Below, piece by piece: positions 2,574 through 32,000 of a stretch of 32,000 nucleotides of DNA. This DNA comes from Bacillus subtilis subsp. subtilis str. 168 (GTDB lineage: Bacteria; Bacillota; Bacilli; Bacillales; Bacillaceae): NCBI RefSeq assembly GCF_000009045.1, contig NC_000964.3, positions 2,220,001 through 2,252,000 of the forward strand. The letters run 5' to 3'. The notes under the pieces are model-generated. The model searched no databases. It was not told where the DNA came from and saw nothing but the letters and a program-made list of their open reading frames with translations. Made by a program: the position numbers and the translations under genes. Positions within the stretch are counted from its first letter, which is position 1. Every line of letters starts with the position of its first letter.

Positions 2574-5093
2574 TTGAAAGGAAAAAAAGACGGCCTAAAT
2601 AAACAAGTACATATTTACAGTATTGACACTTCTGCTTTTTATAATGATCAAGAAAACAAATTACATAACAAGATTTTAAAATCATATAGGTACAGAGATC
2701 ATCTCAGAAAACTTGAACATGTTGATAAAAAACATAAGAAGTACATAACGCAAAGGATTATTTCCTTAAAAGAAAAGCTTTATAACGCCTTTAACGATCA
2801 TAATCAAATAAGAACACTTAGAACAGATTCTCTGAAAGATAATAATGTGATTTCATTATTTGATTCAGTCTTAACTCGAACGCTGGGAATCAAAGAAAAC
2901 TCTCTCTCTGAAGAGATCATGGTTGTCCAAACTTATCACTTTCAAATTTTAAGGGACATTATTGATAAAGGATTCATACATAACAATGAGAAATACGTTT
3001 ATTTCACTAGCAGTGCCGGTCAAATAAGAACAAAAAAATCTTGTTTTATCAAACAAAGCACCTTAGATAAGTATCAAAATGCTTTAACTTGTGGTCTTAG
3101 TGTGGAGCATATCAATGCTCAAGGTGGAAGCAGCATAAACAAATGGAATAGCTACATGGCCTTATCGAATAGCGCCAGCAGTTCATGGGAAATTGATATT
3201 GATAAAGCAATTGTCGTAAATGACTTAGAAACAAATGTTTCCAGCCTAGTTGATTATATTGACCGGGATACATATGAAATCACACGTAAGATTATGGATA
3301 TTCCTATAGAACATACAGATGGTTGTGGAATGATGCTCCCTAGTTTGAGTCAGAAAAGCTTTATGGTCAGATTACCTTGGGTTAAGGGTCTACTTGTTCC
3401 ATTTGACTTTAGAAAGTTTGCTGAAAAACACAGTTCATTTATAGTTAAAGACGTCTACGGTAAAGAATGGGACATTATTAAAGATGATATCCAAATAATT
3501 TTTACGAAAAGCCAGTTTAAGATGTGGAAGTACTATGATTCTTGGGATGATTATCGCTATAAATTTAAAAAGTATGGATGTTTAGGAGCTAAATTAAATG
3601 AAGAAGATCCATCTGTTGAGGGAAAACTGACTTACCAGATGCTACAAACACTCACGGATATCACAGATGAGGAATTGAAACAAATCAGCTCAAAGACTGT
3701 TAGTGAGATTACTCAATTAGGCACTGATAAAGAAACAATGATGAAAGTTTTAGGGGCTACCGAGAAAAATAAACATAAGACAAGCCTTCAAGAAGCTCTA
3801 CTAATATATCCTGAGCTGCTAAATGATGATCACACCAAAGAAATCATTAAGAATAAGAAGAAGAGTATGATTAAGGACGCCAAATCAGGAAAATTACTTG
3901 TCAGTGACGCCCGGTATACATATTTATGTCCTGACCTATATGCTTTTTGTGAAAGATTGTTTCTTGGAATTGAGAGTCCAAAAGGACTACTTTCAGGAAG
4001 CGATGTCCATTGTTCTTTATATGATGAAGGGTATATTGATATCCTCCGCTCCCCTCACCTATTCAGAGAGCATGGTGTTAGGTGGAACAAGAAAAATGAG
4101 GAATATGAAAAGTGGTTCATTACCCCAGGTGTTTATACCAGCATTCATGATCCGATATCCAAGCTGCTGCAGTTTGACAATGACGGGGATAAGGCCTTAA
4201 TTATTTCTGATGAGCTAATCGTCAATATTGCCAAGCGTAATATGGCGGACATCGTTCCTTTGTATTATGAAATGTCTGTAGCCCAGAAACAAGAGATTAA
4301 TAGCAGAAACATCTATGAAGCACTAACTCTTGCTTATGGAATCAATATCGGGGAGTACAGTAACAACATCACTAAGATATGGAACAGTGACAATATAAAC
4401 CTGGACGTGATCAAATGGTTATGCATGGAGAATAACTTTACTATCGATTTTGCAAAAACCTTATTCATGCCCACCCGCCCTGATCACGTTGATGAGAAAA
4501 TCAAAGATTACATAAAAAATAAAGTGCCCCACTTCTTCATCAATGCAAAGGATAAAGAAGAACATAGCGTAGAATCGATTAATGAAAGTACAGTAAATAA
4601 GTTAGACTCCATTATCCCTTCTGACCGAATCAACTTTGCTGCAGTTGCAGGAAAATTTGATTACCGCTTCTTACTCAAAAACAAAGAGATTAAACTTAAT
4701 GAAGCCGTAATAAATGAATATAAACGTCTTGATCGAAATAAAAAATGGCTTATGAATGATGAAGAAGCTAAACCAGGACAAAAACTTTATGTCTATAAGA
4801 TTATCAAACAAAAACTATTGGAAATACATAATGATGACGGATTTATTACAGATGTATTGGTAAAACATCTATATAAGAAAAAAAGTAAATACAAATCGAC
4901 ACTGTGGGAGTGCTTTGGCGATATTGTACTGGAGAACATTAAGCATAATTTAAAGACCTTTAAAGGATGCTGTATTTGTGGAAAAGCTTTTAAGCCAACA
5001 TCTAACAAAGCGAAGTACTGTCAGTCTTGTGGAAAGAAAAAAGAACGTGACAAATACAAAAAATATAACAAAAAGAGAATTAACCACCGTTAG
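2574..5093 (+). CDS. yonO: Single-polypeptide two-barrel DNA-dependent RNA polymerase (YonO type), 839 aa
   Basis: TTG start with SD AAGGGGAG. Metal-binding motif [11 protein letters not shown] (DNDGD encoded at 4176-4190). C-terminal CxxC..CxxC zinc ribbon plus a Lys-rich tail. Size and context match SPbeta YonO as I remember it. Confidence 0.9.
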
Positions 5094-5336
5094 AAAGTGC
5101 CTTGAGCCTTACTCCCCCAAGGTGTACAGCGATTTTACCGAAAAAAACTTCAACAAAAAAGTGTCTTTATCCCTTGGTGCTACTGGGTTGAGAGCACTTT
5201 TGGAGATAATCGTCATAAGGGAGACAGAAAGCTAATTTCCACATAAAAGGGCTAGTACGTTTCCCCCGTCTATATAAAAGACAATCTTTATTGTTCATTT
5301 AGAATAAATTTAATAATACTTAGGAGGAAATTGATT

Positions 5337-5615
5337 ATGAATAAAACAGAACTAATCGCTAAAGTGGCAGAAAAACAAGGGGTATCTAAAAAAGAAGGAG
5401 CTCCCAGTGTCGAAAAAGTCTTTGACACTATTTCAGAGGCATTAAAAAGTGGAGAAAAAGTAAGTATTCCTGGTTTCGGAACATTTGAAGTTCGTGAACG
5501 CGCAGCTCGTAAAGGGAGAAATCCCCAGACAGGAGAGGAAATTGATATTCCGGCTACAAAAGCACCTGCATTTAAGCCAGCAAAAGCACTTAAAGACGCA
5601 GTCAAAGCTAAATAA
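5337..5615 (+). CDS. yonN: HU-family DNA-binding protein (phage paralogue of Hbs), 92 aa
   Basis: [12 protein letters not shown]...[44 protein letters not shown] is nearly collinear with bacterial HU. AGGAGG lies 8 nt before the ATG at 5337. The TTG at 5331 is too close to the SD. Confidence 0.95.
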
Positions 5616-5774
5616 TCAGTTAATGAGGACGACAGGAAAGGCTACCTGCACGCTTTGTCACAAAGAGCTTATGCTCCTAAAAGTGGCAGAGTTGGAAGTT
5701 ATGGAGGAAATTGTCGACCTCCCCTCTTTTCGCTTTTCATCTTCAACTCCGGGTTAATTAATTATAGTTATTTA

Positions 5775-7270
5775 TTTATGGCATGGGGGTGCCGTCAATA
5801 ATTAGTTGATTACTGATATTTGGGATATCAGTTCTCGACTAATGTTCATTTATGAAGGTAAAGACTAATCTAAATGAATATTAGTGGAGATTCCTCTCCA
5901 GTGTGAACTAGCTTTTCTCGATTAAACAATATCTACTCCCTTCTTTTCTGTATCATTCTGACACAAAACTGCGGCTGGTCATTGCAGTTAGTCGGATAAT
6001 AGTCATTTATGAGGGTGCGAGGTTAACTCGGATGTCTGTATCTTCAGGAGACAGATAAATGGCTATTATCGGGCTAAACATGTCGGTAAGACCTTTGCTA
6101 CTCAAGTTTTTTATGTAGGGTGAATCCCATCACAGTCTTACTATGGGTGACATGTATCCCTGAATATTAATTGCGGTGTACTGCTTCGGCTTACACTTAG
6201 GGAATGTAGATGCGTCTCCCTTCCCTTTAAATAATGCCCTTGTAAGCTTCGATGCTTATTATGCGGTCAACAAAATTTTTCCGGGTAAACGAGGCTTTGA
6301 AATTACATACCCTCGTAAAATAAGTGATATGGTTTTGGGCGCTTGATCACCGCTGTCATTTCACAGAAAAGGATTATTTTCGGTCTTGCCTTTTCCTTTC
6401 ACTTAGTAACATATTCGCTACTTTTCCTTCAAGAAACTTACCTTTCCCATGCACATACCTCCTTACACGGGTCAGAGAAAACTGTGCAAAATAAATGGCG
6501 AGAGTTTGAGACGCTTTGTTTCTCAATAAGGCGTGTAACCTGACAAGAGAGACTGAAAACGCCATTGAGAAGGCTTATAATGGGTCTTTCCTTCTCATTA
6601 TTGGTGTTTCGCCACCATAATGTGTCGAGGTTTAGAGTTAGTATTTCATTGTCTGATCGAGAGTAGCCGATTAATCCCGCGTGGGGGACACTAAAGATAC
6701 CGCGATACGTCCAGCTTTGGGATTCCTTCCATTGCCGCTACTAATCAAGGCTTCACTGTGAATTCAGAGATTTTACACAGTTCTTAAATGAATTAGCTCA
6801 TCTGCCATGTGCAGAAGGAGAATCAGTTTTCGCACAGCGATTACCGGTTTATATGCTCATGTACCATGATGTACAAGGAGTTCCTGAAGACGTTATTTTG
6901 GCGTCTTTTGATATTTCGACTTACTTATAGTTTGTCAACTGCAAAGGTTTCAGTCGCTGAACCCGTAATCAGCGTAATCCCTGTCGATCTGAAGGCTTGC
7001 GTCCCAACGTGAGCTAATGACGTAGGTGAAACGGGGTTAGAATGTAATCAGAACAAGGTCATCTAAATCGTTAGAAGGCCTTTTTGTGCTTGCGTTTTAC
7101 TGATCAGCCGGAATGTGTTTACGAGCCTTCCGGTACGCAAGTTATCAATAATCTCCTTCGGGCGTTTCCCCAACGCCTATCCGACTTATCTTTCATCTCC
7201 TTTATATCCCCTTCTCGGACGTTACCGATGCTTCGGATCATCGGGCTTCCGAAGGAGCTTATTGTACGTA
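5775..7270 (+). ncRNA. Candidate large structured noncoding RNA, or long structured 5' leader of the late operon (class unassigned)
   Basis: About 1.5 kb with no ORF that has an SD. G+C is 42-55% in hand-counted samples against about 30% in neighbouring genes. More than 15 helices, many nested or abutting, including 15- and 16-bp stems and C(UUCG)G loops. T:G pairs make sense only for a + strand RNA. No terminator before the yonK SD. Confidence 0.55.
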
Positions 7271-7296
7271 AATAGAAAATTATTGGAGGAATTTAA

Positions 7297-7488
7297 ATGG
7301 CAAGCAAAAAAGTACATCAAATTAATGTTAAAGGCTTTTTTGATATGGACGTAATGGAAGTTACTGAACAAACTAAAGAAGCTGAATACACATATGATTT
7401 CAAAGAAATTCTTTCAGAGTTTAATGGAAAAAATGTTTCAATTACTGTAAAAGAAGAAAATGAACTTCCTGTTAAAGGCGTTGAGTAA
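7297..7488 (+). CDS. yonK: Small acidic protein, 63 aa (YonK family), first ORF of the late block
   Basis: Strong SD TTGGAGGAA 7 nt before the ATG. Sequence and size fit the remembered SPbeta YonK small-protein family. Confidence 0.8.
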   Translation: MASKKVHQINVKGFFDMDVMEVTEQTKEAEYTYDFKEILSEFNGKNVSITVKEENELPVKGVE

Positions 7489-8755: not shown

Positions 8756-9166
8756 TTATCTTGTAAATCCCTCTAAGTCTTTAACGTGAGTAGATACATC
8801 TTTTATAAAGTCAATTGTTTCAGGCGAATCATTCAAGTAATCAACTGTCAATAATTCCTTTTCTTTAATCTCACTGATGAGATTTCTAATAACATTTTGA
8901 AGCTCAGTTTTTTTATCTGTAATGAAATAATACTTAACTCGATTACCCTCACGTGAAATTCCTAATCGATCAACTGGCTGTGTAGATAATTTATTTAATA
9001 CACCTCGAAGAACTCCATTTCTATATTCACCATTCTTAACAAGTTCAGGTATCTTTTTTGCTAGTTCTTCAAGCAGCTCTTTTTCTGTAAGAGGGTGTTT
9101 TGAACCCTTTAAAATCACTGGTATATTTTTACGTACAAGATCTGATAATGTAACTTTGTTTTCCAT
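8756..9166 (-). CDS. yonI: Reverse-oriented gene inside the late block, 136 aa, unknown function (possible winged-helix N-terminus)
   Basis: ATG with SD AGGGGAG. It is the only minus-strand ORF between 7.3 and 25 kb and is bracketed by its own promoter and terminator. Confidence 0.75.
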   Translation of the reverse strand: MENKVTLSDLVRKNIPVILKGSKHPLTEKELLEELAKKIPELVKNGEYRNGVLRGVLNKLSTQPVDRLGISREGNRVKYYFITDKKTELQNVIRNLISEIKEKELLTVDYLNDSPETIDFIKDVSTHVKDLEGFTR

Positions 9167-9203: not shown

Positions 9204-9233
9204 AGTGTAATCCACTTTTTTATCAGATGTCAA
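9204..9233 (-). promoter_or_regulatory. Candidate sigmaA promoter of yonI
   Basis: On the - strand: TTGACA (complement of 9228-9233), 18-nt spacer, TACACT (complement of 9204-9209). Confidence 0.35.
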
Positions 9234-9366
9234 CATCCAATAGTGGATTTTTAAACCTAAAGTTAAACTATTAATCTTTTTTTGATAAAACTTTAATTTT
9301 ATTTAGATTGGAGTCGCATTAATGGTTGACTGCAAAAAGGTTTATTAAAGTAATACAAAAAAACGA

Positions 9367-23992: not shown

Positions 23993-24180
23993 GCAATTTT
24001 TGGGTTATAGCCCTAAACAAAAACTGGGCAACTCTTGATCAGGTTAAAGAAGCTTATTATTACGATGATGTAACTAAGGAAGAACTCAAAGAAGGAGTAG
24101 ACAATAACTTAATTACTCCTGAACAATATCAAGAAATTGTTGGGGAAGCCTATACTTCAGTTACCTTATCTACAGAATAA
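23989..24180 (+). CDS. XkdX-family small phage protein, 63 aa
   Basis: W..LDQVKEAYYYDDVTKEELKEGVDNNLITPEQYQEIVGE matches the remembered XkdX signature (..V..g.IT.eeY.eItG). ATGA coupling at 23989. Confidence 0.6.
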   Translation: MSNFWVIALNKNWATLDQVKEAYYYDDVTKEELKEGVDNNLITPEQYQEIVGEAYTSVTLSTE

Positions 24181-24229
24181 ACACGTTATCATTGTTTGCT
24201 CAAAATGAGGATATTAAGGAGGATATTAA

Positions 24230-24730
24230 ATGGCATCAAAAAAATTGAATTTAAGTTTAATTGAGGAAAGTGTCAATAAGTATGACAAGAAAGAAAAAGT
24301 CCAATTAACCGATGATGTACATGTATTCATCTACCCATACTTTTCTCCTTCTCGGTTAACAAAAATGCTAACTGAAATGATCTCTGATCAACAAAAAGCT
24401 GAAGATAAAGGTATTGATTTTAGTAAAATCAACACTGTTCAATGGGTATTCTTTTCAATTGTCAAAGAATTTTCAGATTTGGGGATTCCGAATGACATCA
24501 AAAATAAAGTTAAATGGTACCTTAAGCTTGTAGATTCCGAATTCTTCCCTATGATTATTAACAGTTTTCCAAAAGAAAGTATGAAGAAGCTTAAGGATGC
24601 AACAAAAGCTTTAGAAAAAATCACTGAAGACTTGTTAACTATGAGCCACCAGGAAATCAACAAGCTTATTCTAGAAAAGGTAGAAGAAATAGAGACTGGT
24701 TCTGGTGAAGTTAGTGGCGAAAACAATTAA
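24230..24730 (+). CDS. Unknown tail-module protein, 166 aa (tail assembly chaperone candidate)
   Basis: Strong SD TAAGGAGGA, helical acidic protein, lies upstream of the tape-measure region. Confidence 0.5.
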   Translation: MASKKLNLSLIEESVNKYDKKEKVQLTDDVHVFIYPYFSPSRLTKMLTEMISDQQKAEDKGIDFSKINTVQWVFFSIVKEFSDLGIPNDIKNKVKWYLKLVDSEFFPMIINSFPKESMKKLKDATKALEKITEDLLTMSHQEINKLILEKVEEIETGSGEVSGENN

Positions 24731-25133
24731 AGATATCAAAGCTATGGTTGAACAAGCTGCAATTCAATCAATTCATAAGTCTTCCTCTAATGTGAAACAA
24801 ATTATGGTAAAAACAGGACAAGAGCATATTGTTGAAGATGTTTACGGTGCATATGATCCCCTACTTTATGAACGCACAGGACAAGTTAAAGATGCCTTTA
24901 TAACCACCAACGAAAGCAACGGGGTGTCATTGGACAATATTAGAGAAGATGATGGAAAAGACATTGCTACAGTTATTGAAACCGGGCAGGGGTATACATA
25001 CCCTGATTCATATGGATATGGATACGGTAACCCTCGTCCTTTTATGAAGAATACCTCTGAGACCTTAAGAGATGGACGATTAACCGCAGCGCTAAAAAAA
25101 GATTTAAAAGCAGATGGTATTAAAACAGACTAA
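24705..25133 (+). CDS. HK97 gp10-like head-tail/tail-completion family candidate, up to 142 aa (start uncertain: GTG 24705, GTG 24714 or ATG 24744)
   Basis: The C-terminal GNPRPFMKNT...L motif resembles the gp10-family A.PF..P signature. Weak SD context. Confidence 0.5.
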   Translation: MKLVAKTIKDIKAMVEQAAIQSIHKSSSNVKQIMVKTGQEHIVEDVYGAYDPLLYERTGQVKDAFITTNESNGVSLDNIREDDGKDIATVIETGQGYTYPDSYGYGYGNPRPFMKNTSETLRDGRLTAALKKDLKADGIKTD

Positions 25134-25146
25134 TGGTGGTGAATTA

Positions 25147-26148
25147 ATGACCAAACCAATTGAAAAGAATATGCTCAGATCTCGAGCAATAAAACTCCCC
25201 GAGGTCACGGAATCAATGTGGGAGCAAGTAGATGAAGAGCACAGAAACTTGGTTCAAGAGTTTTTAGATGCTCATTCATTTAGAGATAAAACACGAAAGC
25301 AGTATTACTCCTCCCTTCGCCAATTCTTTTGGTGGGTACATACCTCTCTTAACGGGAAAAAACTTTATAAGATCTCAAAGCGTGATTTCATTAGGTATCA
25401 AAGTTTCTTAAAGAATCGTGGGATGTCTTCAAGTGGGATTGCTTTAAAAAAAGCCGGTGTATCATCGTTAAATAATTATATCGAAAATGTTGTTGCAGAA
25501 GATGATCATAATTATGAGAAATTCAGAAATTTCACCCGCGGGCTTCCAGCTATTCCTAAAACCACTACCTATGAAAAAGTTAAAGTTACATATGATGATT
25601 ATAAACTGATGATGGACGCCCTAAAAGAGGACGAAAATTATTTGGGGATGGCATGGCTTGCTACTGCCTTTAATGTTGGCGGGCGAAGAGCAGAACTCAT
25701 ACAGTTAAAAACAGAAATATTAGATTACCCTGTTCCAGAGGGTCAGTCATACGTGATGAGTCATAAGGTATTTGGAAAAGGTAAAGGTGAAGGAAAACCT
25801 CTTGAGTACATGATTAACACAGAAGCACTGGAGTATCTTCGCTTATGGCATGAAAAACGTGGCTATGATCATGAATACCTCTTCACTACTCAGTATGGCG
25901 GAGAGCCTAAACAGATGTCAGAGTCTTGGGCTGATTATTTTTGCTCTGATGTGTTATCAGACATCCTTGGTCGACGTATAAACCCCCACCTCTTTAAAGC
26001 TTCGTGCATCACTTATCTCCTAGAAGTTAAGAAAGTCAAAATTGAATTGATAAGCAAATATGTAGCTCATCATGAAGATGTCTCAACAACAATCAAACAT
26101 TATGATTTACGGGATTTTGAAGAAGAAAAAAATCAAATATTTGTTTAG
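25147..26148 (+). CDS. Tyrosine-recombinase (phage integrase) family protein with an atypical active site, 333 aa
   Basis: SAM-like N-terminal core-binding region (KTRKQYYSSLRQFFWWV). Box I GGRRAEL. Box II reads NPHLFKASCITYLL (H-x-x-K where H-x-x-R is expected). HHEDVSTTIKHYD supplies the His and Tyr. SD GGTGGTGA precedes ATG 25147. Confidence 0.8.
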   Translation: MTKPIEKNMLRSRAIKLPEVTESMWEQVDEEHRNLVQEFLDAHSFRDKTRKQYYSSLRQFFWWVHTSLNGKKLYKISKRDFIRYQSFLKNRGMSSSGIALKKAGVSSLNNYIENVVAEDDHNYEKFRNFTRGLPAIPKTTTYEKVKVTYDDYKLMMDALKEDENYLGMAWLATAFNVGGRRAELIQLKTEILDYPVPEGQSYVMSHKVFGKGKGEGKPLEYMINTEALEYLRLWHEKRGYDHEYLFTTQYGGEPKQMSESWADYFCSDVLSDILGRRINPHLFKASCITYLLEVKKVKIELISKYVAHHEDVSTTIKHYDLRDFEEEKNQIFV

Positions 26149-26150
26149 TT

Positions 26151-26480
26151 TTAAGCACCACAAATACATCCTGTTGAATCTCCAGTACTCCACCTTTTAC
26201 AAAATCTATTTCCGGTACAATCTCCAAAACAACCATTGTCCCCCATCGTTCCACAATGAACTAAGTTTAAATCAACTTCACTCGGTGAAATCCCTAAATA
26301 TTTTGCAACAATATGTATATATTCTTCCTCCTCCATCGGGGCCCAATAGTTCTTACCATCTATTTCGATAATTTTCCACCCGAATTTAGAATACATGTAT
26401 TCTGGAATGGATGGCATTTCAGTTTCAAAAAAGACTTTTTCTCCTTTTTCATATACTCTGATTCCATGGATTACTTTCAC
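26151..26480 (-). CDS. Small protein with a Cys-rich C-terminus, 109 aa from GTG 26480
   Basis: GGAGGAG SD 5 nt before the GTG. The last 34 aa carry six Cys (HCGTMGDNGCFGDCTGNRFCKRWSTGDSTGCICGA). Convergent with the recombinase gene; their stop codons are 2 nt apart. Confidence 0.65.
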   Translation of the reverse strand: MKVIHGIRVYEKGEKVFFETEMPSIPEYMYSKFGWKIIEIDGKNYWAPMEEEEYIHIVAKYLGISPSEVDLNLVHCGTMGDNGCFGDCTGNRFCKRWSTGDSTGCICGA

Positions 26481-26615
26481 GATATCTCCTCCAATTGATA
26501 ATTTGAGCTTAGTGTTAACCATTAGAGAAATTCTATTCAATTCAGCATAAAATCCCTCTTTTATTCAGAATCAAGATTCCTCGTTTGAGGGATTTTGCTT
26601 ATGTATAAAACAAAG

Positions 26616-26649
26616 AATCACTTTGTCCCCCGATAAAGACAAAGTGATT
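26616..26649 (-). terminator. Intrinsic terminator after the secreted-protein gene
   Basis: AATCACTTTGTC (26616-26627) / GACAAAGTGATT (26638-26649): 12-bp stem with a 10-nt loop. On the - strand it is followed by CTTTGTTTT. Confidence 0.75.
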
Positions 26650-26655
26650 TTAAAA

Positions 26656-27342
26656 TTAGCTATTAGGTAAATCTACTTTTGCAGGAGTACTAGTCCACGG
26701 TTTGCCCATTTTCTTTTTATGGGCTTTATCTTCAAAAAATTGAACTGTAGCATACTGATACCAACTATCAGTCATTGCTCCTTTTTCGTATAAATCATAT
26801 TTATAATACGCATCAGGGATTTGTTCTTTTGCCCAATAAGAGAATAAAATAGTGGCAGCCTTACTCCCCCATCCCAAGCCAGGGACAATACCGACTAATG
26901 ACATTGTAACTGATAACGCATTTTTAGCTGCTTTTGTATGCCCAGATAAAGTCCCCACATAATGGTATCCCTTTTTAGGTTTTGCAGCCTGTGTTGTGAA
27001 TTCATTTGATTTCAAATTATTGTTTTCATAATTTGTTCTGTTAGCAGCATTTTCATCATACTCAAAGTTTAAGCCTTTTTGTTCTATGCCATCGACTTTT
27101 ACAGTATGATCATTTCCGTTCATCTGAACTTTGTGAGTTTCATTTCCACTCACATACTCAATTTCAACTAATTTCCCGTTCGATGAAATCTTTTCACTTT
27201 TCATTTTGTAATGTAGAGCTAGTTCTTCGTAAGAAGGGGTTGTCTTAGAGTCCTCCTTTGCAGTAGCGTAACCTGCAGGTAAAAGTGAGCCTAAAGTCAA
27301 TGATGCAGCCATAACACAAGTAATAACTCTTTTCTTTCTCAA
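26656..27342 (-). CDS. Secreted protein of unknown function, 228 aa
   Basis: TTG start 7 nt after AAGGAGG. Signal peptide MRKKRVITCVMAASLTLGSLLPAGYATAKE. Confidence 0.8.
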   Translation of the reverse strand: MRKKRVITCVMAASLTLGSLLPAGYATAKEDSKTTPSYEELALHYKMKSEKISSNGKLVEIEYVSGNETHKVQMNGNDHTVKVDGIEQKGLNFEYDENAANRTNYENNNLKSNEFTTQAAKPKKGYHYVGTLSGHTKAAKNALSVTMSLVGIVPGLGWGSKAATILFSYWAKEQIPDAYYKYDLYEKGAMTDSWYQYATVQFFEDKAHKKKMGKPWTSTPAKVDLPNS

Positions 27343-27366
27343 TTGAAATCCTCCTTGTGTTACACC

Positions 27367-27543
27367 TTAAGAATCTGAATTACTAAATACTTGCTTAATT
27401 TTATAAGCAATTACAGCGAGGTATAAAATTGCAACAAACACTAAAACTCCAGTGCCATAATCAGTTTTTGCAACTAGAAAAAGACTTAACACACCGAAAA
27501 TAATGTACATTACAATATCAAAGATATTTTTCTTGTTGTTCAT
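27367..27543 (-). CDS. Small two-TM membrane protein, 58 aa, not in the supplied ORF track
   Basis: My translation: MNNKKNIFDIVMYIIFGVLSLFLVAKTDYGTGVLVFVAILYLAVIAYKIKQVFSNSDS. GGGGGAG SD about 5 nt before the ATG. Its stop is 24 nt upstream of the next gene's start on the same strand. Confidence 0.6.
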   Translation of the reverse strand: MNNKKNIFDIVMYIIFGVLSLFLVAKTDYGTGVLVFVAILYLAVIAYKIKQVFSNSDS

Positions 27544-27888
27544 TTAAACTCCCCCGTTTAGCAATTGATTCCAGGTGCATATTTGATTGCAGCCCCAGTG
27601 TATTAAATACTTACAATTTTGTCCAACCCGAACTCTCTGGCAATATTACTTTAATCATATTGCAAAATAATTTTTTGAATTATTTCAGCACACCTACTCT
27701 AACATGATTCTTTTTTGATTTACATAAAAAATCGAAAAATTGAGTCATTTTTCCTTGGAGAATGACTGTGTATAAATCTTAAAAAGGACTATTCATTCAT
27801 TTTGAAAATTAGAGAAACGTACTCTCAGAAACCTAATTTCCATTAAAATCCTTTGCGTATTTGTCGATAATATGGAGAGGTGATGAAA

Positions 27889-28335
27889 ATGTTCAATAAA
27901 AAAGTATTAAAGCACAATCTGGCTGAAATGAATCCTAAAGAATTAATAAAGTTTATCAAGCATGAATTTCCTATTAATGGACAAGATTATCATACACATG
28001 CAAGGAAAGTCCAAATAATAAAATCTTTAAGCCCGTCTGAATTATCATCTGCCATTGCAAGGATGGAAGGAATAAAATCGCAATATGATCCATCTAAAAC
28101 TTGGGGGATTGGAAGTTTGATTTTGGGAACATCGTTTATAGGATTTCAAGTATTATTTGGTGTGAATATATCAAAAATTACTGAGGGAAACCGATTGAAT
28201 GCATTAATTTACGTATTAATCACAATCATAATTTGCTTATGGACACTTCGTAATATTATAAAAGATAAAGAAAATGCTACAACTGCAGATTATCTCAAAG
28301 AACTGCTCATTCAGATAAAATCAGAAAAGAACTAA
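27889..28335 (+). CDS. Membrane protein, 148 aa (two predicted TM helices in the C-terminal half)
   Basis: GGAGAGG SD 8 nt before ATG 27889. Hydrophobic segments WGIGSLILGTSFIGFQVLFGV and ALIYVLITIIICLWTL. Confidence 0.7.
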   Translation: MFNKKVLKHNLAEMNPKELIKFIKHEFPINGQDYHTHARKVQIIKSLSPSELSSAIARMEGIKSQYDPSKTWGIGSLILGTSFIGFQVLFGVNISKITEGNRLNALIYVLITIIICLWTLRNIIKDKENATTADYLKELLIQIKSEKN

Positions 28336-28416
28336 TGATTTCACTTTCCATTTATACAGTTCTCCATGACTGGAAACAATGGTATAATGTAGGAAAATGA
28401 TACCGGCGGTGGTTGA

Positions 28417-29100
28417 ATGGGATATAAGTTTATGGCTTATGGTGGCTATTTTTTATTCTGTCTTTTCTTTTTGCTAATGGACGGCTGGAGAGGCATGGGA
28501 ATTTGCTTAATAATTGTAGGTTTAGCCCTATTAGCACTTGAGCCCTATAAAATTAAAGCCCAAAAAAATATAGATAAACTAAAAGAAAATGCGGAAACAC
28601 TTAAGCACTTCGACGGTGGTTTTAATCCAGACAATTTCTTTAATACTTACAAAACTAAAATTGCATTTAAGGAATCTGATTCCCTTGTGAAAATATATCA
28701 GCTTAATAAAGATGAACATATTGAAGAATACACAATCCCTTTTTCCAATGTTATAGAATCCGAAATTGCTTTAGACAATCAAATAATTTCTAAAGTATCA
28801 AAATCAGGAATCGTAGCTGGTGGCCTGTTAGCTGGAGGAATTGGAGCTGCAATTGGAGGGTTGTCTGCCTCTTCAATACAAAATGAAATGGTCAAATCTG
28901 TCACGCTAAAGATTACTGTTGAAGACCTCGGTAAGCCTATCCATTATATCGATTTTCTCCCCACACAAGAAGTTGAAGGGTATAATATTCAGGGGTATAA
29001 AAAAGATAGCAATGTCATTCAACAAGCACTTACGAATGCAGAATATTGGCATGGTGTTATGGATGTAATTATTAAGAAAGCAAACAAAGTCGCTCAATAA
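28417..29100 (+). CDS. Membrane protein, 227 aa, with two N-terminal TM helices and an internal glycine-zipper segment
   Basis: YGGYFLFCLFFLLMDGW and GICLIIVGLALLAL, then GIVAGGLLAGGIGAAIGGLSASS. Confidence 0.7.
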   Translation: MGYKFMAYGGYFLFCLFFLLMDGWRGMGICLIIVGLALLALEPYKIKAQKNIDKLKENAETLKHFDGGFNPDNFFNTYKTKIAFKESDSLVKIYQLNKDEHIEEYTIPFSNVIESEIALDNQIISKVSKSGIVAGGLLAGGIGAAIGGLSASSIQNEMVKSVTLKITVEDLGKPIHYIDFLPTQEVEGYNIQGYKKDSNVIQQALTNAEYWHGVMDVIIKKANKVAQ

Positions 29101-29115
29101 CTGAGTGGCTTTTTT
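29088..29115 (+). terminator. Intrinsic terminator immediately upstream of the tape-measure gene
   Basis: AGTCGCTCA (29088-29096) / TGAGTGGCT (29102-29110): 9 bp including two + strand G-U pairs, with a 5-nt loop. Followed by TTTTTCTTT. Confidence 0.55.
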
Positions 29116-29153
29116 CTTTGTCCTCTCCCCTACTGAAAGGAAGTGATTCTTAC

Positions 29154-32000
29154 TTGAGTCAAAACCTCAAAATTATACTAACCCCGCAAGCTGATACCTC
29201 ATCCAAAACTGTCGAACAGTTAAATCAGCAAATTAAATCCCTGGAAAAGAAACTCAACTCCCTCAAGCTCAATACAAACATTGATTCTACAACCTTAAAA
29301 GCTCTGCAAGAATTCTCCTCTGCTATCGACACATATCAGAAAAACCTAAAATCCTATAATCAAACAGTTAAAGAAACCTCAACAGTAATTAAGAATGCTG
29401 ACGGATCAGTTGAAAAGCTCACCCAGCAGTATAAGAAAAATGGTGAGATACTTCAACGTGAAACAAAAATAATCAACAATCGTAATACAGCATTAAAGCA
29501 AGAAACTCAAGAGGTTAACAAGCTAACACAGGCCACTGAGAAACTAGGACAGGTTCAAAAAAAGACTGTGCAGAGAAATCTGCAAGGACAGCCAACAAAG
29601 GTAGTGCAGAAAAACCGCCACGGGTTCGATGATATTGTTTATACAACTGATCCTAAAACTAATTCGACCTCCTCAAAAACTACAACTAATTATGACCAAC
29701 AAAGGAGAGCAATTGAGCAGCTTAAGCAAGATTTAGAGAAGCTTAGACAGCAAGGTATTGTTACTGATACGACCATCTCATCTCTTGGCCGAAAAATAAA
29801 CACAGCTCAATCCGCTCAACAAATTGAAGCACTGCAAAATAGGATAAGGATGTTAGATGATAAATCTGCGGCAGTTGCGAAGAACAATGAATTAAAGAAA
29901 ACCATTGAATTATATCAGCGACAGGCACAAGTAAATGTTCAAAACCTAAATACACGGTATGGCAGTTCTATGGGCTCTAGTAATAGACAAGCTGTTCAAG
30001 ATTATTTGAATGCAGTAAATAGTCTTAATGTAAGCACTGGAAGCAATAATATCAGATCACAAATTCAAAGCTTGAATATGCAATTTAGAGAATTAGCCTC
30101 CAACGCTCAAACAGCTGCTAATCAAGCCTCTTCTTTTGGAGCAGAACTAACCCAAACCTTCAAAAGCATGTCCACCTATTTAATCTCCGGTTCTTTATTC
30201 TACGGAGCTATCTCTGGACTTAAAGAAATGGTATCCCAGGCAATAGAAATTGATACTCTCATGACAAATATTCGCCGTGTTATGAATGAGCCGGATTATA
30301 AATATAATGAACTTCTCCAAGAATCTATTGACTTAGGTGATACACTTTCAAATAAAATCACAGATATTCTTCAAATGACAGGCGATTTTGGGAGAATGGG
30401 TTTCGATGAAAGTGAGCTCTCCACGTTAACGAAAACTGCCCAAGTTCTTCAAAATGTCTCTGATTTAACTCCCGATGATACAGTTAACACTCTAACGGCA
30501 GCAATGCTCAACTTTAATATTGCAGCAAATGATTCAATATCAATTGCAGATAAATTAAATGAGGTTGATAATAACTATGCTGTTACAACTCTAGATCTGG
30601 CCAATTCTATCCGTAAAGCTGGTTCAACTGCTTCTACATTCGGGGTAGAGCTAAATGATCTTATTGGTTATACAACTGCAATTGCTAGTACAACACGTGA
30701 ATCAGGGAATATCGTCGGGAACTCCTTAAAGACAATTTTCGCGCGGATTGGGAATAATCAAAGCTCAATTAAAGCGTTAGAACAGATTGGTATCTCAGTT
30801 AAAACAGCTGGTGGTGAAGCTAAATCAGCAAGTGATTTAATTAGTGAAGTTGCTGGTAAGTGGGATACGCTTTCTGATGCTCAGAAACAAAATACTTCAA
30901 TTGGAGTAGCTGGTATTTATCAATTATCCCGTTTTAATGCAATGATGAACAACTTCTCTATTGCTCAGAATGCGGCTAAAACTGCGGCTAACTCAACAGG
31001 AAGTGCTTGGAGTGAGCAGCAAAAGTATGCAGATAGTCTACAAGCTAGGGTAAATAAGCTTCAAAATAACTTCACTGAATTTGCTATTGCAGCTTCTGAT
31101 GCTTTTATTAGCGACGGATTAATTGAATTTACTCAAGCCGCAGGTTCTTTGCTTAACGCTTCTACAGGAGTAATCAAATCAGTTGGGTTCCTACCTCCCC
31201 TTTTAGCTGCAGTAAGCACTGCAACCCTTTTGCTCAGTAAGAATACCCGCACATTAGCCAGCAGCCTAATTTTGGGCACACGTGCAATGGGGCAAGAAAC
31301 TTTAGCGACTGCTGGGCTAGAAGCTGGTATGACTCGTGCAGCAGTCGCCTCAAGAGTTCTAAAAACTGCTCTTCGAGGGTTGCTTGTTTCAACTTTAGTT
31401 GGCGGTGCATTTGCTGCTTTGGGATGGGCGCTAGAATCATTAATTTCTTCTTTTGCAGAAGCTAAAAAAGCTAAAGATGATTTTGAGCAGAGCCAGCAAA
31501 CCAATGTCGAAGCAATTACGACCAATAAAGACTCCACTGATAAACTAATACAGCAATATAAAGAGCTTCAAAAAGTTAAAGAGTCAAGATCTTTAACTTC
31601 AGATGAAGAGCAAGAATACCTTCAAGTCACTCAGCAATTAGCACAAACTTTCCCTGCATTAGTTAAAGGCTATGATTCTCAAGGAAATGCAATTCTTAAG
31701 ACAAATAAAGAGCTTGAAAAAGCGATTGAGAATACTAAAGAGTATTTGGCTTTAAAGAAACAAGAAACAAGAGACAGCGCAAAGAAAACATTCGAAGACG
31801 CTTCTAAGGAAATTAAAAAGTCTAAGGATGAATTAAAGCAGTACAAACAAATAGCTGACTACAACGATAAAGGTAGACCTAAATGGGATCTCATTGCAGA
31901 TGACGATGACTATAAGGTTGCAGCTGATAAAGCTAAACAAAGTATGCTCAAAGCTCAATCTGACATTGAGAGTGGAAATGCTAAAGTTAAAGATAGCGTC
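29154..32000 (+). CDS. yomI: Tail tape-measure protein, N-terminal 949 codons (partial; continues beyond the window)
   Basis: I read the frame by hand from TTG 29154 (SD AAAGGAAG upstream) to 32000 without a stop. Coiled-coil N-terminus, then a conserved TMP core (MGFDESELSTLTKTAQVLQNVSDLTPDDTVNTLTAAMLNFNI...SIRKAGSTAS) and hydrophobic segments. The ORF track omits it, apparently because it has no stop in the window. The symbol (yomI = cwlP) comes from remembered SPbeta annotation. Confidence 0.9.
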   Translation, partial: MSQNLKIILTPQADTSSKTVEQLNQQIKSLEKKLNSLKLNTNIDSTTLKALQEFSSAIDTYQKNLKSYNQTVKETSTVIKNADGSVEKLTQQYKKNGEILQRETKIINNRNTALKQETQEVNKLTQATEKLGQVQKKTVQRNLQGQPTKVVQKNRHGFDDIVYTTDPKTNSTSSKTTTNYDQQRRAIEQLKQDLEKLRQQGIVTDTTISSLGRKINTAQSAQQIEALQNRIRMLDDKSAAVAKNNELKKTIELYQRQAQVNVQNLNTRYGSSMGSSNRQAVQDYLNAVNSLNVSTGSNNIRSQIQSLNMQFRELASNAQTAANQASSFGAELTQTFKSMSTYLISGSLFYGAISGLKEMVSQAIEIDTLMTNIRRVMNEPDYKYNELLQESIDLGDTLSNKITDILQMTGDFGRMGFDESELSTLTKTAQVLQNVSDLTPDDTVNTLTAAMLNFNIAANDSISIADKLNEVDNNYAVTTLDLANSIRKAGSTASTFGVELNDLIGYTTAIASTTRESGNIVGNSLKTIFARIGNNQSSIKALEQIGISVKTAGGEAKSASDLISEVAGKWDTLSDAQKQNTSIGVAGIYQLSRFNAMMNNFSIAQNAAKTAANSTGSAWSEQQKYADSLQARVNKLQNNFTEFAIAASDAFISDGLIEFTQAAGSLLNASTGVIKSVGFLPPLLAAVSTATLLLSKNTRTLASSLILGTRAMGQETLATAGLEAGMTRAAVASRVLKTALRGLLVSTLVGGAFAALGWALESLISSFAEAKKAKDDFEQSQQTNVEAITTNKDSTDKLIQQYKELQKVKESRSLTSDEEQEYLQVTQQLAQTFPALVKGYDSQGNAILKTNKELEKAIENTKEYLALKKQETRDSAKKTFEDASKEIKKSKDELKQYKQIADYNDKGRPKWDLIADDDDYKVAADKAKQSMLKAQSDIESGNAKVKDSV

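Follow-up and report, generated by a model that had tools for sequence, protein, structure and literature searches.

The interval between positions 25147 and 29153 of a 32,000-nt stretch of the Bacillus subtilis 168 genome (genome positions 2220001–2252000, called the window here, whose own numbering is used below) belongs to the SPbeta prophage, and the 6.5 kb surrounding it is 100% identical to Bacillus phage SPBc2/SPbeta (NC_001884). The initial annotation of this DNA had described the interval as one 4-kb accessory island inserted in front of the tape-measure gene. Comparison with related phages points to a different architecture. In the reading that we consider likely, the interval is a composite of phage backbone, a cargo slot, a separate insertion carrying yozP and the immunity gene yomJ, and the most probable mechanism of YomJ is the exclusion of superinfecting phages at the membrane.

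The locus was compared in 15 SPbeta-like phages (SPbeta and 14 others) by blastp and blastn, and the core or accessory status of genes was taken from Table S4 of Kohm et al. (about 60 prophages). Every gene of the interval was searched against Pfam, PHROGs, NCBIfam and PADLOC-DB 2.0, with matches obtained only for yomM, yomN, yomO and yomJ. The search of Rfam over window positions 24000–30000 returned nothing real, and the PDB sequence search gave weak Cre matches for the N-terminal half of YomM, none for YomJ and chance matches to GFP for YomL. GenBank names the genes yomN, yomM ('site-specific integrase'), yomL, yomK, yomJ ('immunity protein d') and yomI (tape measure); yozP and youB are named only by the B. 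subtilis annotation, beyond the GenBank phage record. The main elements are the following:

24705–25133, plus strand: yomN, conserved late gene of the left backbone flank (phrog_19892 match; core in Kohm Table S4)
25147–26148, plus strand: yomM, divergent tyrosine-recombinase-like core late gene (phrog_1 and XerC TIGR02224 matches)
26151–26480, minus strand: yozP, 109 aa, GTG start behind GGAGGAG, on the 397-bp insertion 26151–26547
26548–26610, no strand: 63-bp block with a hairpin at 26572–26597, left border of the cargo slot
26611–28370, no strand: cargo slot, with yomL, youB and yomK in SPbeta and a content that differs between phages
27889–28335, plus strand: yomK, 148 aa, two predicted transmembrane helices, variable cargo
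28371–28416, plus strand: conserved 46-nt block with the predicted yomJ promoter and the ribosome-binding site, right border of the slot
28417–29100, plus strand: yomJ, the 'd' immunity gene, 227 aa, predicted membrane protein of the PH_gly_zipper family
29086–29112, plus strand: intrinsic terminator of yomJ, 11-bp stem followed by TTTTTTCTTTG (−15.3 kcal/mol, z = −3.0)
29154–32000, plus strand: yomI/cwlP, 5' part of the annotated tape-measure and lytic transglycosylase gene, core gene and right backbone flank

The open reading frames (ORFs), terminators, promoter-like site and inverted repeat proposed in the initial annotation were all recovered in place, or nearly so, by ORF listing, a terminator scan and folding. 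Two of them were adjusted: the terminator drawn at 29088–29115 was placed at 29086–29112, and the minus-strand terminator described with a 12-bp stem has a stem of 15 bp (26616–26649).

Borders and contents of the cargo slot

In the blastn alignments, homology to the 14 other phages stops at 26141–26150, holds across 26548–26610 in all of them and starts again at 28371 for 11 phages and at 28375 for L1 (these 12 include cases in which it never breaks). In the long right flank, phi3T and BUCT083 regain homology only from 29041, and from this position on the sequence is conserved in all phages. Presence/absence variation is confined to 26151–26547 (397 bp, with yozP) and 26611–28370 (1.76 kb), and the borders of a single inserted island were wrong, with yomM lying in the backbone and yomJ being near-universal. 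The polymorphism among close relatives that the initial annotation had anticipated was found for yozP, yomL, youB and yomK, but not for yomM, which is present in 15 of the 15 phages; yomJ is present in 13. These exact breakpoints of the slot are new relative to the literature.

On the left flank, yomN was found in all 15 phages at 79–99% amino acid identity. The adjacent yomM, for which the ATG at 25147 behind GGAGGTGA is a sensible start, occurs as two alleles that are 64% identical. Because it is present in every phage of the comparison and is listed as core, together with yomN and cwlP, in about 60 prophages (Kohm Table S4, in which yozP, yomL, youB, yomK and yomJ are non-core), it was assigned to the backbone and not to the cargo, where the initial annotation had placed it. 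YomM has homology to both the core-binding and the catalytic domain of tyrosine recombinases, matching the phrog_1 integrase profile (E = 2e-30, residues 45–339) and XerC TIGR02224 (E = 1.5e-10, residues 55–327). The score against PF13495 Phage_int_SAM_4 was 26.4 bits, just below the cutoff of 27, and the PF00589 profile gave no match. When YomM was aligned by MAFFT with CodV, RipX and a chromosomal integrase, its active-site residues read R-K-H-K-H-Y: Arg-I, the beta-hairpin Lys, His-II, His-III and the catalytic Tyr are retained and Lys replaces Arg-II, so the complete set R-K-H-R-H/W-Y was not found. Both YomM alleles carry HxFKA where other tyrosine recombinases read HxLRH. The SPbeta integrase is the serine recombinase SprA, not YomM.

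The 63-bp block bordering the slot on the left was found in all 14 other phages and stands directly 3' of yomM where yozP is absent. Its hairpin folds at −16.7 kcal/mol (z = −3.8) and has conserved arms with a variable loop (GTTT, TTTT, AACT, AGTT, AAAC or AATC). Possible roles of the block are those of a terminator, an insulator or a site for protein binding. It also carries a 10-mer as two direct and one inverted copies (AAAATCCCTC, AAGATTCCTC and GAGGGATTTT). The hairpin loop differs by cargo type, and the change seen in L4 strengthens the A'-B stem.

The alternative cargo of the slot includes defence-like genes. L6 and L7 carry a 350-aa Ser/Thr kinase (Pfam Pkinase, E = 7e-41) which matches the PADLOC single-gene defence models PD-T4-6 and mad6 with E-values of 1e-35 to 1e-45. 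BUCT083 has a 60-aa gene and a 118-aa RelE/ParE-like toxin gene (below the Pfam cutoffs) at 3869–4408 of its locus, and phi3T has an insertion sequence (IS) element. The slot genes of SPR, Goe11, L2, L8, L3 and L5 gave no family match. In SPbeta-like prophages of B. licheniformis the slot grows to 7–9 kb and contains PemK-like, kinase and Bro-N genes. The kinase copies were located as follows:

4302–5354 of the SPbetaL6 locus: slot kinase
4326–5378 of the SPbetaL7 locus: slot kinase
218–1273 of locus L025: slot kinase

The kinase gene is preceded by a gene for a 167-aa protein and followed by one for a 60-aa protein, neither with a family match.

Three cargo types were each found with both yomM alleles, and the variant of the hairpin arm and loop tracks the cargo and not the yomM allele, which argues for exchange through short conserved blocks. 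Judged by the sequences of these phages, the slot behaves as a moron hot spot: SPbeta-like phages appear to swap accessory genes between the 63-bp hairpin block and the 46-nt yomJ promoter block, with the cargo being reshuffled by recombination via such blocks, and yozP would be a separate small insertion to the left of the hairpin. Since a conserved recombinase-like gene adjoins the variable slot and an inverted repeat whose arms are conserved around a variable centre forms the border, a loosely integron-like, site-specific capture of cassettes was also considered, in which YomM would act on the adjacent hairpin to insert or exchange cargo. A chromosomal copy of part of the slot, described below, ends exactly at the hairpin, which fits this idea. 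However, recombination sites on both sides of the cassette were not found: a search of the phage loci, the window and the genome showed the hairpin motif once per phage and once more at the chromosomal yddT locus, with no copy on the right border, and cassette capture was rated low for this reason. The second catalytic Arg is moreover a Lys in YomM, the gene is silent in lysogens and lies in the late operon, and the region is mosaic throughout, so that ordinary homologous exchange via the conserved blocks suffices. Capture by YomM is thus improbable. If true, it would make YomM and the hairpin site a phage-borne cassette-capture device and would explain why defence, toxin and envelope genes gather at one point of the late operon and why the chromosomal copy ends at the hairpin.

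The 26151–26547 segment was present only in SPbeta and phi3T among the 15 phages. The GTG of yozP is a sensible start, and the product has six Cys in its last 34 residues. The gene is an orphan, as only its own cluster was found among 5.8 billion proteins, and it gave no match in Pfam, PHROGs, NCBIfam or PADLOC. Homologues of yomK with 28–41% identity were found in L1, L3, L6 and L7, the gene is absent from 6 phages, and no family match was obtained in Pfam, PHROGs or PADLOC. The position of yozP, yomL, youB and yomK within the morphogenesis operon and beside the tape-measure gene would suit tail-assembly or structural factors that merely resemble cargo. This reading is hardly credible and already contradicted: the genes are absent from many plaque-forming SPbeta-like phages, three of the four lie on the opposite strand with their own terminator, and plasmids and non-phage regions of chromosomes carry yomL and youB as well.

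Expression and predicted architecture of YomJ

The gene yomJ was found at 92–100% amino acid identity in 13 of the 15 phages. The BUCT083 allele is only 33% identical and lies between conserved 28371–28412 and the conserved sequence from 29041 onward, like an allelic cassette, and phi3T has no yomJ, the gene having been lost beside the IS element. The extended -10 element TGnTATAAT (28380–28388) and the ribosome-binding site GGCGGTGG are kept in 14 of 14 copies, whatever lies upstream. The constancy of this block in front of varied upstream DNA suggests that yomJ travels with a predicted minimal extended -10 promoter, which the general promoter scan misses.

A single operon of 37 late genes, starting at genome position 2225998 (window position 5998), is read by the phage polymerase YonO (Forrest et al., PMC5467207). 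The initial annotation had likened the cargo to morons expressed from the prophage and had asked whether it is transcribed with the flanking late genes silent. This was compared with published values for uninduced strain 168 (Kohm et al., Table S5), which comprise one array (log2) and two RNA-seq sets (nucleotide activity for each kilobase of exon model and each million mapped reads, NPKM):

yomM: array 7.3; NPKM 2705 and 826
yozP: array 7.5; NPKM 3087 and 915
yomL: no array value; NPKM 128004 and 45411
youB: no array value; NPKM 23023 and 15190
yomK: array 9.98; NPKM 3278 and 3344
yomJ: array 10.5; NPKM 13418 and 16181
yomI: array 7.55; NPKM 1819 and 2193
yopR (repressor, for scale): array 12.0; NPKM 29348 and 44181

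The expression of yomJ is clearly on in uninduced 168 while the late genes are off, and yomK is modestly up on the array (background about 7.5) and near background by RNA-seq. The values of yomL and youB are confounded by the chromosomal copy of these genes, and yomM and yozP are at background level. The proposal of prophage-expressed moron cargo thus holds for the 26.6–29.1 kb part, with solid evidence for yomJ and array evidence only for yomK, and fails for yomM and yozP. A promoter and a terminator of their own were recognised for yomJ and for youB–yomL, the promoter activity being predicted. These cargo genes would be sigma-A-type units, read by the host polymerase and closed by intrinsic terminators inside the YonO late operon, and could for this reason be active in the lysogen with the late genes silent. 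The terminators may at the same time keep the host polymerase out of the late genes.

According to the summary of McLaughlin et al. 1986 given in PMC8270828 and the Kohm preprint, plasmid-borne yomJ confers resistance to SPbeta and its close relatives, and the same two sources state that the gene is deletable without prophage induction. Of the superinfection exclusion, defence and lysogenic conversion functions proposed for the interval, the first is in line with the resistance conferred by yomJ. No SPbeta gene of the interval matched a PADLOC defence model (nothing better than E = 0.02). For yomJ the reading as a moron with an immunity function is correct, and for yomL, youB and yomK it is plausible.

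YomJ and 26 of its 27 listed homologues, which come almost all from the B. subtilis group, carry a precomputed match to Pfam PF27000 PH_gly_zipper. The local Pfam copy has no PF27000 model, and the hmmscan of YomJ was blank for this reason. The most conserved element of the family in the alignment is an invariant glycine zipper, G131–S150 (G131, G135, G140, G141, G143, G147 and G148). The AlphaFold2 model (predicted local distance difference test, pLDDT, of 76) has two N-terminal helices, a beta-sandwich (strands 73–128 and 162–179) and a C-terminal helix cap (199–226), with the zipper as a low-confidence insert. Foldseek matched it to the bacterial PH domains 3dcx, 3hsa and 3b77, with a best E-value of 0.013 and, for 3dcx, a probability of 0.98. 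Phage proteins that bear the label 'Short C-terminal domain' were matched with E = 2e-8. YomJ thus combines the PF27000 profile with a predicted PH-like fold into which the glycine zipper is inserted. The Lys-rich segment after the second helix and the positive-inside rule indicate that the PH-like domain probably faces the cytoplasm.

Taken together, YomJ would be an inner-membrane protein composed of a two-helix hairpin and a PH-like domain carrying the zipper, which may stop superinfecting phages of the SPbeta type at or just after genome entry and so back up the immunity given by the MrpR/YopR repressor. Two properties expected of exclusion proteins such as HK97 gp15, T4 Imm, lactococcal Sie and the Ltp type were found, a membrane location, predicted from the two N-terminal hydrophobic helices, and expression from the prophage. 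The data are most simply read as exclusion at or just after genome entry, by analogy with HK97 gp15.

An abortive-infection effector would give the same lack of plaques if the zipper formed a pore or depolarised the membrane, so that the infected cell dies or stalls. The invariant GxxxG-type zipper, which is the most conserved element and forms a flexible insert of the PH-like domain in the model, would suit such a function, and the plasmid-borne resistance fits exclusion and abortive infection alike. On the other hand, YomJ matched no abortive-infection or effector model in PADLOC, it is made constitutively in healthy lysogens and no trigger or partner gene is conserved beside yomJ. We therefore regard abortive infection as unlikely.

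Several points weigh against exclusion at the membrane by YomJ and against the transcriptional scheme proposed for the cargo. The pLDDT of the model falls to 33–34 exactly in the zipper, and the matches of the fold to PDB entries are weak (best E-value as given above). The phage phi3T is able to superinfect SPbeta lysogens, which means that any exclusion at the prophage expression level is narrow or weak, and the immunity was demonstrated with a plasmid-borne gene, whose dose may have been unnaturally high. Four genes lie between the yomJ homologue and the tape-measure gene in the B. licheniformis relatives, and a distant member of the YomJ family stands after the lysis cassette of an unrelated prophage. 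The adjacency to the tape-measure gene, taken in the initial annotation as a hint of an injection block, is thus a weak argument, as the position is not kept in these relatives. The general promoter scan gave 22 promoter-like sites in comparison with 21.1 in shuffled sequence, and the promoters described here are sequence predictions. YonO presumably reads through the cargo terminators after induction, and this read-through is assumed. The RNA-seq reads were mapped to the SPbeta subset only, and since the chromosomal copy at the yddT locus is 95% identical, the NPKM values of yomL and youB may include yddT reads. Finally, the 1986 report of McLaughlin and colleagues has 'control of lysogeny' in its title, and its authors may have seen post-entry effects.

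This title, together with the expression in lysogens, also favours the view that YomJ regulates the maintenance or establishment of lysogeny and does not exclude incoming phage; the wording 'lysogeny management component' used for yomJ in PMC8270828 agrees with it. Such a role would be surprising, however. YomJ is a predicted membrane protein without a DNA-binding domain, which makes it an unlikely repressor, and the demonstrated master repressor of SPbeta is MrpR/YopR (PMC10516654). The gene is non-core and, as noted above, deletable without induction, and phi3T lysogenises without it. Membrane-level exclusion accordingly remains the preferred explanation of YomJ immunity.

Relation of the locus to known systems

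The central biology of this region has been in the literature since 1986, with updates in 2021–2022. The idea of the initial annotation was largely right but mostly published, and the present findings overturn no current knowledge. What is added is the exact architecture of the slot, a structural interpretation of YomJ, the finding that youB–yomL is mobile and duplicated, and a caveat on expression. The gene yomJ is the same as SPbeta gene d (McLaughlin et al. 1986, J Bacteriol 167:952; 100% identical at 28417–29100), which the literature treats as an immunity or lysogeny factor without a mechanism. To this, the analysis adds the predicted membrane architecture with a PH-like domain and a glycine zipper, the private extended -10 block and the near-universal, fixed position in SPbeta-like phages of B. 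subtilis.

A functional parallel is gp15 of HK97 (Cumby et al. 2012, 2015), which, like YomJ in its predicted architecture, is a small inner-membrane protein encoded by a prophage moron in the late region of a siphovirus and protects against phages of the same type. In the account cited in PMC13190303, gp15 blocks genome entry in a manner dependent on the tape-measure protein. The two proteins have no sequence or fold relationship, YomJ having 227 aa and a PH-like domain, and an entry block by YomJ is suggested by analogy only. More generally, the locus resembles the morons of lambda, HK97 and mycobacteriophages in having units with their own promoter and terminator between late genes, expression from the prophage, and variable, defence-like cargo (kinase, toxin–antitoxin). 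It differs from them in that the SPbeta operon is read by the single-subunit phage RNA polymerase YonO and in that a conserved hairpin, next to a recombinase-like core gene, marks the border of the slot.

The beta-sandwich of YomJ with its C-terminal helix cap is shared with bacterial PH domains (DUF1696 3dcx and 3hsa; bPH 3b77) and PF27000, whereas the N-terminal two-helix membrane hairpin is an addition. YomM is similar to MrpR/YopR, the repressor with a tyrosine-recombinase fold, in being a conserved recombinase-like SPbeta protein that is not the integrase, but it is encoded by a late gene, silent in lysogens, and keeps the Tyr with Lys for the second Arg.

Among the temperate phages of B. 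subtilis, SPbeta serves as the model. Its immunity is today attributed to MrpR, and the older d/yomJ result has stayed unexplained. The reading of YomJ given here leads to the testable idea of a second, membrane-level layer of immunity. The slot at 26611–28370 is a practical place to seek defence or conversion genes and a safe place to insert cargo.

The youB–yomL cassette and its regulatory region

In SPbeta, the minus-strand part of the slot consists of the following elements:

26616–26649, minus strand: youB–yomL intrinsic terminator, 15-bp stem with a T-rich tail (−17.6 kcal/mol, z = −5.0)
26656–27342, minus strand: yomL, 228 aa, Sec-type signal peptide, member of a small family found only in Bacillales and ending in LPNS
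27367–27543, minus strand: youB, partner gene of yomL, encoding a 58-aa protein with two transmembrane helices
27544–27888, no strand: divergent regulatory region of 345 nt with a promoter-like site and an inverted repeat
27626–27597, minus strand: promoter-like TTGGAC-18-TACACT, hexamers conserved in all four copies of the region
27640–27663, no strand: inverted repeat GCAATAT-N10-ATATTGC, perfect only in SPbeta

A search among 1.84 billion representatives gave 18 members of the YomL family, all of about 210–250 aa and all having a signal peptide and a conserved C-terminal domain that terminates in LPNS. YomL itself had no match in Pfam, PHROG, NCBIfam, PADLOC or the PDB, and a profile comparison of YomJ with YomL revealed no relation. 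The YomL model built from a five-sequence alignment reached a pLDDT of 50.7, and its fold search was without a credible match. A gene for a youB-like two-helix membrane protein always precedes the yomL homologues. The pair was found on mobilisable (Mob) plasmids of Priestia of about 8 kb and also in B. siamensis, where its neighbours are a SUKH immunity gene and what is likely an orphaned fragment of an HNH-type toxin. Judged by these contexts, youB–yomL is a mobile two-gene cassette, which is new here. In the B. siamensis locus, the neighbouring region (6286–7407) holds an ORF of 176 aa, at whose end stands the HNH-like motif HHVLPLKYGG...N, and after it a SUKH/SMI1 immunity gene, and from its sequence this arrangement looks like an orphaned tip of a polymorphic toxin with its immunity partner.

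Window positions 26572–27942 (1.37 kb) are duplicated with 95% identity at the chromosomal yddT locus (556168–557530; 5169–6531 of locus L027), between a major facilitator superfamily (MFS) transporter gene and ydeA/cspC. The copy spans the hairpin, at which it ends exactly, the terminator, yomL, youB, the entire regulatory spacer and the first ~54 nt of yomK. The retention of the phage hairpin and of a piece of yomK points to a transfer of the cassette from phage to chromosome. As the promoter region is duplicated as well, both copies of youB–yomL are probably active, and the published expression values for the two genes are ambiguous because of the second copy. The signal peptide of YddT, which differs from that of YomL by one residue, was functional for Sec secretion in a published library.

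The cassette may be a portable envelope module made of a tiny membrane protein and a strongly expressed secreted protein. A secreted bacteriocin with a small membrane immunity protein would have such a composition, and a Sec-exported product, a membrane partner and a mobile context were indeed found here, but homology to a known bacteriocin was absent from Pfam, PHROG, NCBIfam and the PDB. A role in lysogenic conversion of the envelope or in competition would be a guess.

The resemblance of the minus-strand promoter-like element to the promoter of yonI (TTGACA-18-TACACT), pointed out in the initial annotation, was borne out. The inverted repeat at 27640–27663 exists too; its noteworthiness did not hold. 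The 345-nt spacer contains six 7-bp inverted repeats, this one included, where 1.15 are expected, and T27661 is C in the three other copies of the region. It was rejected as an operator because it is neither conserved nor exceptional.

Lysogens of phages with different slot contents have been compared for their ampicillin minimum inhibitory concentrations (MICs) by Floccari et al. 2025 (PMC12361552). The MIC was 100 µg/ml in SPbeta and Goe13 lysogens, 25 µg/ml in Goe11 and 50 µg/ml in Goe14 lysogens, and phi3T had the lowest value. SPbeta carries yomL–youB–yomK, and Goe11, Goe14 and phi3T do not. Goe13 matches the slot stretch with the same coverage, identity and coordinates as Goe12, which has SPbeta-type cargo. 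The link between cargo and MIC is only a correlation over five phages, and the host may have its own yddT copy.

The yonI gene itself lies on the minus strand inside the late operon (8756–9166), with its promoter at about 9205–9234, and is expressed in uninduced lysogens (array 10.2; NPKM 7403 and 15812). Its opposite orientation, own promoter and expression in lysogens indicate that yonI is probably a second moron.

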